NCBI GenBank assembly: GCA_049840815.1
Contig: JASGJI010000019.1
Span: 128,613-192,612 of the forward strand
Reading direction: 5' to 3'
Length of the DNA: 64,000 bases
DNA from: Thermomicrobiales bacterium
Lineage (GTDB): Bacteria; Chloroflexota; Chloroflexia; Thermomicrobiales; UBA6265
The notes beneath the pieces are model-generated. The model searched no databases. It was not told the origin of the DNA and saw nothing but the letters and a program-made list of their open reading frames with translations. This document shows positions 2,293 through 52,008 of this stretch, piece after piece (positions within the stretch are counted from its first letter, which is position 1; every line of letters starts with the position of its first letter). The translations under genes and the position numbers were made by a program.

Positions 2293-3618
2293 CTAGCGAG
2301 CAGCAGCGGCAGAGACGGTATCATCGGCAGGGGATGCCTGGGAGATGCGTTCGTCCGCATCCTCATGGACCGTGCTGAACCGTTCCCGCATCATCCAGAT
2401 ACCGGCGGCAGAAACAAGCCCGACAACGAAGAAGATGGTCCACGGCACCATCCCCATTCCCGGCCGCGTGCCAAGGTCATAGAGGGTTCCGCCGAGAAGG
2501 TTCCCCAGGCTGCCGCCAACCGCCAGCGAGAGGGACGCGACGCCAAAGTACGCGCCGCGTGCCGCGGGCTTCGCCAGATTCGCCGTCACGGTCTCCTGCC
2601 CGGGCCGAGCGAGGACCGCACCCACCGAGAAGACGGCTGAGGCCACCAGCAAGCCGAACGTGTTCGCGGAGAATCCGACCAGCAACAATCCACTGGCAAG
2701 CACGATCAACCCGACCACGAGCAGGGCAATCGGCGAGAACCACCGTTCCAGCGCGCGCGGCAGCAGATAGCCAAGCCCGATCGTGATCGCCGTGTTCACG
2801 GCGTAAAGCCAGGACACCGAGGCATCGGTCCCTGTAAGGTCGGCGGCAAAGAGCACGATCGTCAGTCCGAACTGCGACGACGCGAACCAGTACCCGGTCA
2901 GCAGCATCAGGAAGAGCATGAAATCGCGATCGCGGAAGACAGCGCGGAGGCCGGTCGCTGACCCGGCGGCTTCTCCGTCCTCGACCGTCTGCATCCGGGT
3001 CGACACGGAGATGTTGGGCAACATGGCGACCATCACCACGCTGATGATGACGTACGCCGAAGCCGCCGCAATGCAGACGATCCGGAAGTCCGCGCGAATC
3101 AGGAATGCGCCAAGCTGGGTGCCGACCGTCATTCCTGCGCCGGAGATGACGCCTAGCGTCGAGTAGAGGCGTTGGCGTGTCTCTGGCTGAGAGAGCGCCG
3201 CAATGGCTGCCGACTTCGGTGCCTCGAACATGGAGCCGCCAAACCCGGCGAGAATCGCCGCCAGCAGGACCGGCCAGAAATGACTCGCGTAGGCCATCGC
3301 GAAGAATCCCGCCGCGCGGACCAGCATGCCGGTCGCGATGATCGGCTTCGGGCCGATGCGGTCGGCGAGGACCCCGAAAAAGGCGGTCATACCCTGCTGC
3401 GTGAGCTGGCGGATGGCGAGCACGAGGCCAACGGTTCCGGCCGCCCAACCAAGATGATCGACATAATGAACGGCCACCAGCGGGATGACCATGAAGAACC
3501 CGCCCCACGTGAGGAAGGTGCTGATCATCACGGCGATCAGGCCGCTCCGGCGCTGGCGGTCGCTGAGACGTTCGGGCGGTATCGGGGCCGGCAGCGAGAG
3601 GGCGATACGGGCGTTCAT
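2293..3618 (-). CDS. MFS transporter (MdtH-like)
   Basis: About 12 TM segments, GVLADRIGPK motif A. Confidence 0.85.
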   Translation of the reverse strand: MNARIALSLPAPIPPERLSDRQRRSGLIAVMISTFLTWGGFFMVIPLVAVHYVDHLGWAAGTVGLVLAIRQLTQQGMTAFFGVLADRIGPKPIIATGMLVRAAGFFAMAYASHFWPVLLAAILAGFGGSMFEAPKSAAIAALSQPETRQRLYSTLGVISGAGMTVGTQLGAFLIRADFRIVCIAAASAYVIISVVMVAMLPNISVSTRMQTVEDGEAAGSATGLRAVFRDRDFMLFLMLLTGYWFASSQFGLTIVLFAADLTGTDASVSWLYAVNTAITIGLGYLLPRALERWFSPIALLVVGLIVLASGLLLVGFSANTFGLLVASAVFSVGAVLARPGQETVTANLAKPAARGAYFGVASLSLAVGGSLGNLLGGTLYDLGTRPGMGMVPWTIFFVVGLVSAAGIWMMRERFSTVHEDADERISQASPADDTVSAAAAR

Positions 3619-3869
3619 GCAGGAGAAACCTTCGGGAACGGACGGAAACGCCCCCCACGATCGGAACGGTGACGGATCGGATGACGTGCGAATTGTCGGT
3701 GTCGGCGCGGCTTCTGGCAATCGTCACGCCCACCGGATCAGCCGAACGACGGCGGCCTGCCAGCTACACTTGCGCGCATGGCGTCGTGGGGATGACGAGG
3801 GCATCGCCGCCGGTCCCTGGCGGTTCCCGGGGGGCAGAATCCGGATGCAAAGGAGCATCGTTCAGGGCC

Positions 3870-4490
3870 ATGAGCTACGATCCGCAGACCATCTTTACGG
3901 CCATTGATCTCTTCGGTGTCTTCGTAGGGGGAGTTACCGGCGCGTTGGTCGGTCGTCGGTTGCGCTACGACATTACCGGCCTGTGGGGGCTGGCCCTGGT
4001 GAGCGGCCTCGGCGGCGGATTGATCCGCGACACCTTTCTGCAGGATGGTCCGCCGCTGGCGCTGATCGAACCGACCTACCTGCCGACGGTGCTGGCGGCG
4101 GCATTCGCGGTGGCCTTCTTCGGCCCACATCTCGGGTCGCTGAAGATGTCCATCGTGGCCGCCGATGCCCTGGCGCTGGCAAGTTTCACCGTGGCGGGAT
4201 GCCTCCGCACCTTCGATGCGGGGCTGGGCATCTGGCCGGCCATCCTGCTCGGCGTGATCACGGCGGTCGGTGGCGGCATGATCCGCGACATCCTGACCGG
4301 GGACACGCCGATGGTCTTCCGCAACGGCGAGCTCTATGCGCTGGCAGCGCTGGGTGGTTGCCTCGTCGTCGTCCTCTGCCGCGAACTGGATGCGCCCCGC
4401 ACGATCACGAGCCTTGCCGGGATGGCGGTCGTGCTGTTGCTGCGCTTCGGGTCGGTTCGCTGGGGATGGAGGTCGTGGGTACCTCGCTGA
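3870..4490 (+). CDS. Trimeric intracellular cation channel (UPF0126) family protein
   Basis: Duplicated GLGGGLIRD / AVGGGMIRDIL motifs. Confidence 0.9.
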   Translation: MSYDPQTIFTAIDLFGVFVGGVTGALVGRRLRYDITGLWGLALVSGLGGGLIRDTFLQDGPPLALIEPTYLPTVLAAAFAVAFFGPHLGSLKMSIVAADALALASFTVAGCLRTFDAGLGIWPAILLGVITAVGGGMIRDILTGDTPMVFRNGELYALAALGGCLVVVLCRELDAPRTITSLAGMAVVLLLRFGSVRWGWRSWVPR

Positions 4491-48107: not shown

Positions 48108-48796
48108 GGGCGCACCGTTTCGAGGATCGCGCCAGCTTCGTCAATGGTCAGGGCGAGATCGGCCATGCCGATGAAGAGGCCATGCTCCACCACGCCGACA
48201 ATCGACTTCAGCGCCCCGGCCAGTCCGGCAGGATCGGCGAATCCCCCCTCCGGCGGGTCGCAATCGACAATCCAGTGGCCACCATCGGTGACATACGTCG
48301 ACCCGTCCGCGTTCGCGCGCAAGACCGGATTCAGGCCGAGCGCGACGATTTCACGGGTCGTCGCCTTCCATCCAAGCGGCATCACCTCGACGGGCAATGG
48401 CAGGCGCGTCCCGAGCCGGGGGACCAGCTTCTCGTCGGAGGCGATGATGAGGTAGCGATGCGCCTGCCGGGCGACCAGCTTCTCGAAGAGCAGCGCACCA
48501 CCCTTGCCCTTCACCACATCGACGTTCGCATCGATCTCGTCCGCGCCGTCGATGCAGAGATCGAGGCGTTCGACATCGTCCAACGCGGCGAGCGGGATGC
48601 TCAGGCTCTGCGCGAGGGCAATCGTGCGATTCGAGGTCGCGACACCGGTGACCTCCAGGCCATCCGCGACGCGAGCACCGAGGGCGCGGATCATGGCCTC
48701 AGCGGTGGACCCGGTGCCAAGCCCGACCGTGCTGCCATCGGCAACTTCGGCGGCAGCGCGCGCACCGATGAGGGCGAGTCGTTCGTTACTGTCCAT
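48104..48796 (-). CDS. rpiA: Ribose-5-phosphate isomerase A
   Basis: GLGTGST, DGADE, KGKGGALLFEK. Confidence 0.96.
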   Translation of the reverse strand: MDSNERLALIGARAAAEVADGSTVGLGTGSTAEAMIRALGARVADGLEVTGVATSNRTIALAQSLSIPLAALDDVERLDLCIDGADEIDANVDVVKGKGGALLFEKLVARQAHRYLIIASDEKLVPRLGTRLPLPVEVMPLGWKATTREIVALGLNPVLRANADGSTYVTDGGHWIVDCDPPEGGFADPAGLAGALKSIVGVVEHGLFIGMADLALTIDEAGAILETVRP

Positions 48797-49583
48797 CGGT
48801 CGGCGTCCGATCCAGCTGGGCTGCGGCGGCCTCGTCCACGAGCCAGATCAGGGTGCCGTCGGTCGGGCGAATGACCTGGCAAGGCGTTTCGTCGATCTGG
48901 ATCGGGCCATCGAGGACCTGATGCAGGCGTTCTGCCTTGCCCGCGCCAGCGAGCAGGAAGACGGCCATTGCGGCAGCGTTCGCGAGTGCCGGGGTGAAGG
49001 TGAGACGCGTCGTGTTCAGCTTCGGCACCTCGTTCTCGACCGCCAGCCGGGCGTGATTGTGCACGGCGGAAGTGTGCGGGAAGAGCGAGAGCGTATGCCC
49101 GTCGTCGCCCATGCCGAGGAAGATCAGGTCGAAGCGCGGCGCGCCGTCTTCGACCTGCGTCACCTCCCGGATCAGACGCTCGTAGCGGTCAGCGGCGGCG
49201 GCAGGATCACTTCCGGGGTCCGTCTCCCAGGGATGGACGTTCTCGGCCGGGATGGCGACATGCTCCAGGAATCCGCGGAGGGCTTCCCCGGCGTTGCTCT
49301 CGGGGTCCTCGATGGAGACCCACCGCTCGTCGCCCCAGAAGGCTTGCAGGCGGTCCCAGCGGACACGGCCGGCGTACTCCGGGGTCCGGAGGAGGGCTCC
49401 CATCTTCTTGGGGGTCGAACCGCCCGAAAGCGCGACGATCGCGTCACGGTCCTCGGCGGCGGCAGCGGCGATGACCGAGATGAGCGTCTCAGCGGCAGTG
49501 GTAGCGAGCGTATCGCCGTCCTGAACGACGACGACGGTACCTCGCTCGCCATAGTCGATAGTCTTGAGGCCAGTGAATGGCAT
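48786..49583 (-). CDS. pgl: 6-phosphogluconolactonase
   Basis: LSGGSTP, FWGDERWV, LGMGDDGHTLSLFP. Confidence 0.95.
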   Translation of the reverse strand: MPFTGLKTIDYGERGTVVVVQDGDTLATTAAETLISVIAAAAAEDRDAIVALSGGSTPKKMGALLRTPEYAGRVRWDRLQAFWGDERWVSIEDPESNAGEALRGFLEHVAIPAENVHPWETDPGSDPAAAADRYERLIREVTQVEDGAPRFDLIFLGMGDDGHTLSLFPHTSAVHNHARLAVENEVPKLNTTRLTFTPALANAAAMAVFLLAGAGKAERLHQVLDGPIQIDETPCQVIRPTDGTLIWLVDEAAAAQLDRTPTDGQ

Positions 49584-49779
49584 GGATCGGCTCCGTTCCC
49601 GTGGTGATCTCAGCGGACGAACTGCTGCGGGAATTGTACCGCCGGTGGGAGATGGGTGGCCTGACACGGAATGCTGCCATCGTCCCGATCGATGAACTCT
49701 CAGGACAATCTGGTCTGGATATGAGATTGTGTGTAAAGAGCATTGGCCCGACTGGTGACTGAACGAACAGGGTGAAGGG

Positions 49780-50244
49780 GTGGATGACGCAAAATGCGAA
49801 CTTCCAGAGCCCGTCGGCATCCGCCGCACTCCGCCGCTCGCTCCAACTCCGGTCCATGAACGTCACGTTCTGATGCGTTTGCCCAAATCAGCCCAGCCAC
49901 GAGAAGCGAATACCATCGTTCTCCCGGGAGTCGATCTCGATGACGATCTGGAGGCGATCAGGCGTGGTGATTGCTGGTTCGATAGCGCAACGCGTCGGAT
50001 CTGGGTGAACGGTCGACTCTATGGACAGCACGACAATGGCCAACTCTACCCAATGCACGGGGTGGGATTCGTACGCATCGATCGCCAGACATTTCGCGCA
50101 CTTCGCACATTCCGACGATACAATGGATTGACCGAGCGGGCGCTTTTCGAAATCGCCCGTGATCCATATATCACAGACGATCAGCGAGACTTCGCAATTC
50201 GCCTTTGGCGCATTCGGGGAGATCGAGAAAGGAGCGGCTCGTGA
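49780..50244 (+). CDS. Hypothetical protein, possible orphan toxin C-terminal domain
   Basis: GTG start with RBS, basic composition, VNGRLYGQHDNGQLYP segment, lower GC than neighbours. Confidence 0.6.
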   Translation: MDDAKCELPEPVGIRRTPPLAPTPVHERHVLMRLPKSAQPREANTIVLPGVDLDDDLEAIRRGDCWFDSATRRIWVNGRLYGQHDNGQLYPMHGVGFVRIDRQTFRALRTFRRYNGLTERALFEIARDPYITDDQRDFAIRLWRIRGDRERSGS

Positions 50245-50687
50245 CGACTGTTGGCGCTGCCATGATTTCCATGTCTCATAAGCCGAGTCCGGAATCGCTT
50301 CGTCGTGCGGCGGCGCTGGGCTATGGTATTGGTGAAGGGGAGGTCTTCATCGGAGCATATTCCGGCGATCATCAGCCATTCCCGGCCGGCTACCGCGTGT
50401 ACCTCAATCTCTGGGACGATACCTACGCTGGCGATTTCCCGGTTGCGTTCGACCAGGAGATCGACGAAGCATTGGTTCCGTCGATGGAGTGTGCCCTGCA
50501 AGGCATGGCGAGACTCCTGAATGTTCTCATCGTCACGAACGACTCCGAGGAAGAGAATCCGATTGTGTATCTTCCGAATGGATCAGTTCAGCGCCGATTC
50601 CTGAAGTCCCTTCCGGACGACGGGCGTGTCCTGCCTCCCGATCTCAAGGCATTCCTGGTCCAGCATCCTCAAGCAAGGGCAGCGTAA
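50241..50687 (+). CDS. Hypothetical acidic protein, possible immunity protein
   Basis: GTGA overlap, strong AAAGGAG RBS. Confidence 0.65.
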   Translation: MTTVGAAMISMSHKPSPESLRRAAALGYGIGEGEVFIGAYSGDHQPFPAGYRVYLNLWDDTYAGDFPVAFDQEIDEALVPSMECALQGMARLLNVLIVTNDSEEENPIVYLPNGSVQRRFLKSLPDDGRVLPPDLKAFLVQHPQARAA

Positions 50688-50775
50688 GACAGGTGTGTAC
50701 CAGACGCGAGAGCGGGCGCCCCTTTCCGGGGCACCCGCGACCGCTGCGTCATGCGTTGATTCGTGTGCGGATGCC

Positions 50776-52008
50776 CTACGGCAGCAGGCGCGTCGCGAAG
50801 CGGAGCGCCTCCTCGAAGACACGATCCGGCACCAGGCGCTGAAGCTCCTCGGCCAGCATCGACTCGCTGTCCGGCCGCTTCGAATAGACCATGCGGCTCA
50901 CACGCGGCATGGTCGGCAGCTCGCTCGACGTGATCAGATCGTCCTCGTCGGTCCGTTCGACCTTGAACACGCCCGGATGCTCGCCAGTCGCGACCAGCTC
51001 GACGCTGCGCAGCGAGAACTTCGCCATCGCGCTCTTGTCCGAGATCAGCCGCACCTGCACGGTGCGCTGCGTCGTCCCCGAGCGGGCCAGCAACGGCACC
51101 CACGAGGCACCGGCGCGTTGGTCCAACTGGTCAATCGCTTCCCAGCCGAGCCGGCTTCCCAGCCAGCCGACGGTCAACAGGGCCGAGGCCAGGCCAGACG
51201 ATCCGTCCTCGCGCGATTCCGCGTAGGCGACCGTCACGCTATCAATCGTCTGCAGGGATGCCTGCGAGTCCTCGCCATCGAAGAACTGGGCAATCAACTG
51301 CCGCCAGGTTCCCAGCCGCAGCCAGGTGAAATCGCCGATGATCGCATGATGGAAATCGGCGTCCACCAGATCGCGGAGCGCGGCAACGCCACGCACATCG
51401 CGACCGAGCTGGGCGCTATCAACCATCAGCCGGTCGACGATGGCCAGCAGATCGTGGAAGAGCGGGCTGCGCGCAAAGTCGCCGCTCGGCCACCACAGGT
51501 AGTTCGGCAGCTCGGACATCAGCAGTGGGGATACCACACTCGCCAGCCGACCGGCTTCGCGGGCGTCGGCGCTGATGGTGATGGTCTCGAACTTGAGCTC
51601 GCTCTGCTTTTCGCCCTCTGGCGCCTGATCGCGCAGTTCCACGCGCACCGAATAGGGAATCGTCTCCTCGTCTCCATCTTCCGGCGTGCGAAGGATGATG
51701 ATAACGGTGCGCGACGGCAGGAAATCCTTCAGCCGCCCGACGCTGGCTGCGATGAGGCCCGCGTCCTTCTCGGACGGTGCGACGGCCACGAGGTTGAGCG
51801 TCGTGGCCCGCATGAGGCCGCCGCCAAACCCGGCAACATCCGGGTCGATCTCGTCGAATCCGCGCGGCCGATCCAGAACGCCGCCAACCTGCTCCCAGAG
51901 CTTGGCGACCTCGTCGTAGATGGCTCCCGTATCGATGGAATCGGTCGTCCACTCGGTGACATACACCGGACGAGCCTCCGATTCCGGGGTGGTGGTGGAC
52001 GTTGACAT
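50776..52008 (-). CDS. opcA: Glucose-6-phosphate dehydrogenase assembly protein OpcA
   Basis: RATTLNLV, LPNYLWWP, DFTWLRLGTWR; directly downstream of zwf. Confidence 0.9.
   Translation of the reverse strand: MSTSTTTPESEARPVYVTEWTTDSIDTGAIYDEVAKLWEQVGGVLDRPRGFDEIDPDVAGFGGGLMRATTLNLVAVAPSEKDAGLIAASVGRLKDFLPSRTVIIILRTPEDGDEETIPYSVRVELRDQAPEGEKQSELKFETITISADAREAGRLASVVSPLLMSELPNYLWWPSGDFARSPLFHDLLAIVDRLMVDSAQLGRDVRGVAALRDLVDADFHHAIIGDFTWLRLGTWRQLIAQFFDGEDSQASLQTIDSVTVAYAESREDGSSGLASALLTVGWLGSRLGWEAIDQLDQRAGASWVPLLARSGTTQRTVQVRLISDKSAMAKFSLRSVELVATGEHPGVFKVERTDEDDLITSSELPTMPRVSRMVYSKRPDSESMLAEELQRLVPDRVFEEALRFATRLLP

Follow-up and report, generated by a model that had tools for sequence, protein, structure and literature searches.

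What kind of system is encoded by two small, GC-poor genes on the plus strand between opcA and pgl, two minus-strand genes that are normally adjacent? The question is raised by a 64,000-nucleotide stretch of the Thermomicrobiales bacterium assembly GCA_049840815.1 (contig JASGJI010000019.1, positions 128,613 to 192,612), here called the window, to which all unlabelled coordinates refer. A preliminary description, made from the nucleotide sequence alone, had pointed out at this place an antisense cassette of reduced GC content that comprises a basic 154-aa open reading frame (ORF1) and an acidic 148-aa one (ORF2) with a strong ribosome-binding site, and that has no transposase nearby. All these features were found as described: the calculated pI values are 9.2 for ORF1 and 4.7 for ORF2, the cassette segment has a GC content of 57.3% versus a genome mean of 64.9%, the Shine-Dalgarno sequence GAAAGGAG precedes the ORF2 start by 6 nt, and no transposase is encoded near the cassette in the window. 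The ORF1 stop and the ORF2 start overlap by 4 nt (GTGA, 50241-50244), which together with the position of the Shine-Dalgarno sequence inside ORF1 implies translational coupling of the two genes. From the analysis that follows, we consider it very likely that ORF1 and ORF2 are a toxin and its immunity protein, and likely that they form, as a whole, a stand-alone toxin/immunity cassette.

The ORF1 domain and the ORF2 family in polymorphic toxin loci

When 1.84 billion representative proteins were scanned in full with HMMER, 394 matched the ORF1 family, and the motif singled out in the preliminary description (VNGRLYG and the glycine-containing positions behind it) forms the conserved core of this family. 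Among the best 150 of the 394 relatives, about half are small proteins, and the rest, 205-1298 aa in length, carry the match at their extreme C-terminus. The N-terminal parts of these carriers contain RHS repeats, eCIS_core/DUF4157, PT-TG, Phage_Mu_F, or PAAR; further carriers possess DUF4280, PT-VENN (Snodgrassella alvi), or PT-HINT (Pseudomonas aeruginosa), and the source annotations of carriers include 'VENN motif pre-toxin' and 'polymorphic toxin-type HINT' proteins. The pairwise alignments extend from the RH motif of ORF1 to a few residues short of the carrier C-termini.

A C-terminal domain following diverse trafficking parts is the defining architecture of polymorphic toxins (PMC3482391). 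The likeness to polymorphic-toxin tips, pointed out in the preliminary description, thus holds for proteins of the RHS, PAAR, DUF4280, MuF, eCIS_core/DUF4157, PT-TG, PT-VENN, and PT-HINT kinds, and at the level of sequence ORF1 is shown to be the stand-alone form of an uncatalogued polymorphic-toxin C-terminal domain. ORF1 itself has neither a trafficking or secretion domain nor a Pfam domain, and no signal peptide or known trafficking domain was found in it. The domain occupies approximately residues 28-146, and the invariant or near-invariant positions are R28, H29, T45, P49, D56, I60, G63, R79, Y81, P91, G94, and G96. The uncatalogued family has 394 matches, with proteins of P. aeruginosa and S. 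alvi among its carriers; a related-loci search with a shallower alignment had returned only two loci, in a Chloroflexia metagenome-assembled genome.

Two observations concern the routes by which the domain might be delivered elsewhere. In locus L064 (1501-4365), a 454-aa toxin with an ORF1-type C-terminal domain is accompanied by an ORF2-like gene, and a Pvc16_N gene about 1.1 kb further downstream places this pair within an extracellular contractile injection system (eCIS) locus. In three proteins of 230-260 aa (P0028, P0029, and P0036), the domain follows a helical N-terminus of about 100 residues that has no Pfam match; as an impression only, this N-terminus might be a WXG/LXG-like domain for type VII export that has escaped recognition.

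The second gene of the cassette also has its counterpart behind delivered toxins. Each of six long toxins with an ORF1-type tip is followed by a gene for a 131-150-aa protein, either overlapping or within approximately 20 nt. Comparison by hhalign of a profile of 14 ORF2-family proteins with three of these downstream gene products gave 87.9% (E 3.2e-6, 119 columns), and the ORF2 hidden Markov model (HMM) matched four of these six products, with E values from 3.5e-8 to 2.4e-5, so that ORF2 homologues are present behind toxin-tip proteins, where the preliminary description had proposed to look for them. The 134-aa gene behind a seventh toxin, the PT-HINT protein of L032, is separated from it by about 500 nt and does not match the ORF2 profile. 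By these profile matches, ORF2 is shown to be a member of a small-protein family encoded directly after toxins that carry the ORF1 domain. The polymorphic-toxin domain and its immunity family are thus both uncatalogued and may have new folds.

Insertion between opcA and pgl and the copies in the genome

The history of the site was traced by comparison of the window's own genome (G000) with a genome of the same genus (G002), six more genomes of the family, and a metagenome contig (L007). An empty-site comparison of the kind suggested in the preliminary description was provided by G002, where opcA and pgl, 90% and 88% identical to those of the window, are adjacent with a 190-bp spacer that lacks the cassette. 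In the six further genomes the two genes are also adjacent and cassette-free; the gap is widest in G003 (about 350 bp), measures about 110 bp in one more genome, and is at most 30 bp in the others. The contig L007, whose pgl is 86% identical, has the cassette at the identical site, and the cassette was thus already present in the common ancestor of the window and L007. Alignment of the filled and empty sites puts the left boundary directly after the conserved pgl-upstream motif GGGA(A)TTGTACCGCC and the right boundary directly before a GC-rich hairpin that the empty site also has. This alignment shows that the cassette entered the site, with the opcA terminator hairpin on one side and the upstream region of pgl on the other, in an ancestor common with L007.

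The hairpin had been listed among the downstream features of the cassette in the preliminary description. It is indeed present (-31.8 kcal/mol, z -2.75, within a longer stem), but a homologous hairpin (-37.9 kcal/mol) occurs in the empty site of G002, and it is therefore a native terminator-like element of opcA that was not brought by the cassette; ORF2 and opcA now converge on it, so that its position is also behind ORF2. Since the 190-bp spacer, the terminator-like hairpin, and the conserved pgl motif all predate the insertion, pgl was probably transcribed separately already, which makes a new pgl promoter, proposed earlier as a possible consequence of the cassette, unnecessary. ORF1 and pgl are oriented head-to-head, and antisense overlap would require read-through. 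Whether or not the cassette is present, the motif GGGA(A)TTGTACCGCC precedes pgl by about 45-60 nt in three genomes, namely in the window (Table 1), in L007 (about 3423-3437), and in L017 (2343-2356), and it may serve pgl as a promoter or operator.

Neither a target-site duplication nor terminal inverted repeats were found at the insertion boundaries, and no annotated plasmid or phage was matched by ORF1 in a tblastn search. A mobile-element signature was rejected on the grounds of the missing duplication and repeats and of a DDE_3 fragment beside only one of the ten cassette copies in the genome. Between the window and L007, the ratio of nonsynonymous to synonymous substitution rates (dN/dS) is 0.083 for ORF1 and 0.14 for ORF2; the values for pgl (0.126) and rpiA (0.119) are of the same order, and so is dS. 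The low ratios indicate that ORF1 and ORF2 are real genes under purifying selection. 

The window copy is one of ten intact cassettes dispersed over G000, whose ORF1 homologues are 29-64% identical. Each ORF1 copy is directly followed by an ORF2 homologue of 146-151 aa, with a 4-nt start/stop overlap in seven of the ten cassettes, and the invariant ORF1 residues are retained in all ten copies. The identities of ORF1 and ORF2 co-vary across the cassettes (r = 0.79), ORF2 diverging faster, and the two genes duplicate and diverge as a unit. ORF1 homologues occur in nine of 61 genomes, with ten copies in G000, seven each in G001 and G035, and zero to seven in relatives. All ten open frames of ORF1 in G000 are at most 226 aa long and none is fused; a tblastn search of carrier N-termini against this genome gave no match, and carriers of the RHS, PAAR, MuF, WXG100, and HINT kinds were not found in it. 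All ten cassettes have a low GC content (0.57-0.64 versus 0.649), despite the window copy being as old as the split from L007.

Proposed mode of action and rival explanations

We propose that the pair is a self-contained, delivery-less cassette that behaves like a type II toxin-antitoxin (TA) module. ORF1 would act enzymatically in the cytoplasm, with nucleic acid as the most likely target, because ORF1 is basic, ORF2 is acidic, R28, H29, D56, R79, and Y81 are invariant, and a signal peptide is lacking; the same five residues are the candidate catalytic residues. ORF2 would neutralise ORF1 by 1:1 binding. Having no export route, the pair would act within the producing cell as an addiction module or as a module triggered by stress or phage, and for such an intracellular, TA-like role we see roughly even chances. 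The trigger would be the loss of ORF2, whose conserved Ala-Ala or Ala-Ser C-terminus is possibly a ClpXP-type degron.

ClpX recognises ssrA-tagged proteins chiefly by a free Ala-Ala at the C-terminus. The ORF2 proteins of this lineage (146-151 aa, versus 131-150 aa behind delivered toxins) exceed most of the latter in length, by up to about 15-20 residues, and ORF2 of the window ends in ...ARAA. Among 36 lineage ORF2s, which as related family members are not independent of each other, 26 terminate in Ala-Ala (14 proteins) or Ala-Ser (12 proteins), preceded by a variable stretch that cannot be aligned, and 33 have Ala at position -2; the background frequencies in approximately 2,800 putative genes of G000 are 6% for AA/AS ends and 16% for Ala at -2. 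In the set of only six immunity proteins of delivered toxins, one has such an end (AAS). The tmRNA gene of the genome (G000:C7:133583-133947) encodes the tag peptide ANNRQLAFAA. The identification of ORF2 as a protease-labile antitoxin with its tail as the degron is tentative. Equally speculative is the broader proposal that a warhead domain of undescribed fold, which arms T6SS, Rhs, CDI-type, phage-MuF, and eCIS toxins in diverse bacteria, has been domesticated in one Chloroflexota lineage as a multi-copy, delivery-less TA family, its immunity protein having been made labile by a C-terminal extension of about 15-20 residues with an ssrA-like degron. If true, such domestication would directly show an interbacterial weapon becoming an intracellular addiction or abortive-infection switch. 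The ten carrier-less cassettes with a degron-like antidote tail offer a testable case of the suspected traffic between polymorphic toxins and toxin-antitoxin systems.

Several points count against the proposal of a TA-like cassette. ORF1 and ORF2 have no match in Pfam, NCBIfam, PADLOC, or PHROGs, and Foldseek searches of PDB and BFVD with the two structural models gave nothing significant (best E 0.1-0.3, template modelling score at most 0.39). None of the 14 ORF2-family members matches an HTH, RHH, or AbrB domain, and many type II antitoxins bind DNA. A sigma-70 promoter scan found no promoter. The absence of carriers from G000 rests on a 95%-complete assembly, in which the eCIS_core search was uninformative, its control having remained silent, and there may be an as yet unrecognised export route for small toxins. 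The tail motif of ORF2 is R-A-A or L-A-S and not the canonical L-A-A.

Family-database searches of 64 ORF1-family and 14 ORF2-family members were also without a match, as were the PADLOC anti-phage defence models at E <= 1; a sequence-profile search of PDB returned chance matches only, and a literature search by accession found nothing. The AlphaFold2 model of ORF1 (mean predicted local distance difference test score, pLDDT, 95.5; predicted template modelling score 0.87) consists of a beta region of six strands and, behind it, three helices, and that of ORF2 (pLDDT 89.9) of a ferredoxin-like alpha/beta core with a disordered C-terminal tail. Assignments to ADP-ribosyltransferase (ART), HNH, PD-(D/E)xK, BECR-type RNase, or deaminase folds are unsupported, as no fold match was significant, and the NGR triplet was rejected as a Fic motif, being situated in a beta-hairpin of the ORF1 model. 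As the models are confident and match no solved structure, the toxin may prove to have a novel activity and the inhibitor a novel fold.

The missing fold matches, together with the stable inheritance and the housekeeping-like dN/dS, would suit a pair of co-evolving small housekeeping or regulatory proteins that merely share a domain with toxins. We regard this explanation as highly improbable, given that eight kinds of carriers have the domain precisely as their variable C-terminal tip, with ORF2-like genes behind it, that its distribution is patchy (nine of 61 genomes, one to ten copies each), and that the site is empty in a genome of the same genus. A toxin pair might also be a classical orphan cassette, that is, a silent spare tip with its immunity gene kept for recombination onto a full-length toxin. 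Solo toxin cassettes with immunity genes are known at polymorphic toxin loci (PMC3482391), and solo-cassette examples are seen in the arrays of PT-VENN and PT-HINT genes of L029 and L032. In G000, however, no full-length carrier was found, the ten cassettes are scattered among housekeeping genes and not arrayed, every cassette has its own start codon with ORF2 translationally coupled, and ORF1 evolves at a dN/dS of 0.083 with the invariant residues kept in every copy, all of which makes the orphan explanation quite unlikely. Of the 'orphan toxin/immunity or addiction module' in the preliminary description, the toxin/immunity part is supported and addiction, or a TA-like role, is the better option, whereas a classical orphan does not agree with the absence of a full-length carrier.

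A somewhat less remote alternative, though still an improbable one, is that ORF1 is a small exported effector, secreted or loaded through its 27-residue proline-rich N-terminus or through an unlinked adaptor, and that ORF2 guards the cell against kin. Elsewhere the domain serves at least five delivery routes, including the eCIS locus with Pvc16_N in L064; the N-terminal stretch PxxGxRRxPP is conserved among the stand-alone copies; and G000 contains two lone ORF2-family genes, as expected of acquired immunity. On the other hand, no signal peptide or known trafficking domain was detected, in the structural model the N-terminal stretch packs as part of the domain, with a pLDDT of about 97 from residue 11 onwards, RHS and WXG100 genes are absent from G000 in searches whose controls worked, and no gene is conserved beside the ten cassettes.

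The proposed TA-like cassette resembles several known systems. With polymorphic toxin systems (Zhang, Aravind et al. 2012, PMC3482391) it shares the tip domain, the toxin-then-immunity order, and the overlapping genes. It differs from them in lacking a trafficking or pre-toxin part, in the absence of a full-length toxin from the genome, in the dispersal of its ten copies, which are not arrayed, and in that neither family matches the Pfam Tox/Ntox/Imm models built from PMC3482391. The likeness to type II TA modules lies in two small coupled genes for a basic toxin and an acidic antidote, many scattered copies per genome with a patchy distribution among relatives, and a possible degron-like tail; no homology to a known TA family was seen, and ORF2 has no recognisable DNA-binding domain. 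Toxin-first order and protease-labile antitoxins are known among type II modules, for example in HigBA and MqsRA.

Uncatalogued tips of about 80-150 aa, which are also encoded by single-domain genes that precede an immunity gene, are further known from the PT/PIM pairs of Nachmias et al. (bioRxiv 10.1101/2021.10.19.465003), where novel short polymorphic-toxin domains were tested as single-domain genes. Our comparison covers PT1-PT9 of that work. ORF1 was distinguished from PT1 and PT7 (solved) and PT3 (RhsP2-like) by the lack of a PDB fold or profile match, which holds if the searched PDB copy includes those structures, and from PT5 and PT9 by peptides deduced from mutagenesis primers, which differ from ORF1. 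According to the same paper, PT2 and PT8 are confined to Neisseriaceae and Leptospiraceae, and PT4 and PT6 act in the periplasm; on these grounds all four were excluded as matches of ORF1.

Layout of the locus and surroundings of the other copies

The features of the locus are collected in Table 1. The flanking genes identified by Pfam are all on the minus strand, rpiA and pgl on one side and opcA, zwf, gnd, and tal on the other, and the local GC content is 0.55-0.58 over 49550-50750, with flanks at about 0.66.

Table 1. Features of the cassette and its flanks in the window
Feature	Position	Strand	Basis
ORF1, predicted stand-alone toxin gene (basic, 154 aa, start GTG)	49780..50244	+	ORF scan, family alignment, AlphaFold2
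ORF2, predicted cognate immunity/antitoxin gene (acidic, 148 aa, start GTG)	50241..50687	+	Profile matches, AlphaFold2
Shine-Dalgarno sequence GAAAGGAG for ORF2, within the 3' end of ORF1	50227..50234	+	Sequence
Inserted segment, approximate (about 1.07 kb)	49644..50711		Relative to the G002 empty site
pgl-upstream motif GGGAATTGTACCGCC, left insertion boundary	49629..49643		Shared by the two filled sites and the empty one
GC-rich hairpin flanked by the stop codons of ORF2 and opcA, which converge on it	50712..50738		Folding, homology to the empty-site hairpin
pgl (6-phosphogluconolactonase, PF01182), divergent from ORF1, spacer 196 bp	48786..49583	-	Pfam
opcA (G6PD assembly protein, PF10128/PF20171), convergent with ORF2	50776..52008	-	Pfam

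An internal ATG at 49873 was rejected as the start of ORF1, as the invariant R28-H29 falls upstream of it; the same GTG start is found in the L007 orthologue and in the 84%-identical protein P0005. ORF1 is apparently skipped by gene callers: the ENA contig L007 has no called gene at 3585-4046, and a search of the protein collection returned a 100% match for ORF2 of the window (P0008) and none for its ORF1.

The other nine cassettes of G000 have mostly housekeeping neighbours, as judged from Pfam matches of one or two neighbours each; these include a dynamin-like GTPase, RecN, two GFO/IDH/MocA oxidoreductases, an extracytoplasmic function (ECF) sigma factor, an aminotransferase, and an amidohydrolase. 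The sole cassette that adjoins a DDE_3 (IS630-like) transposase fragment is at G000:C11:164372-164761. Two lone ORF2-family genes, both on the minus strand and with no detectable ORF1 upstream, are located at G000:C19:63876-64286 and G000:C19:304655-305080, with the tails ...VRAA and ...PLAS. The cassettes at G000:C11:281742-282170 and G000:C11:255120-255533 each stand beside a GFO/IDH/MocA paralogue in differing relative orientation, and may be the trace of a segmental duplication. Finally, the cassette at G000:C11:341395-342275 lies between a dynamin-like GTPase gene (625-649 aa), which it directly follows, and a gene for a PD40 beta-propeller, and the same GTPase-cassette-PD40 synteny recurs in an unrelated metagenome contig (L001, 1961-4790).

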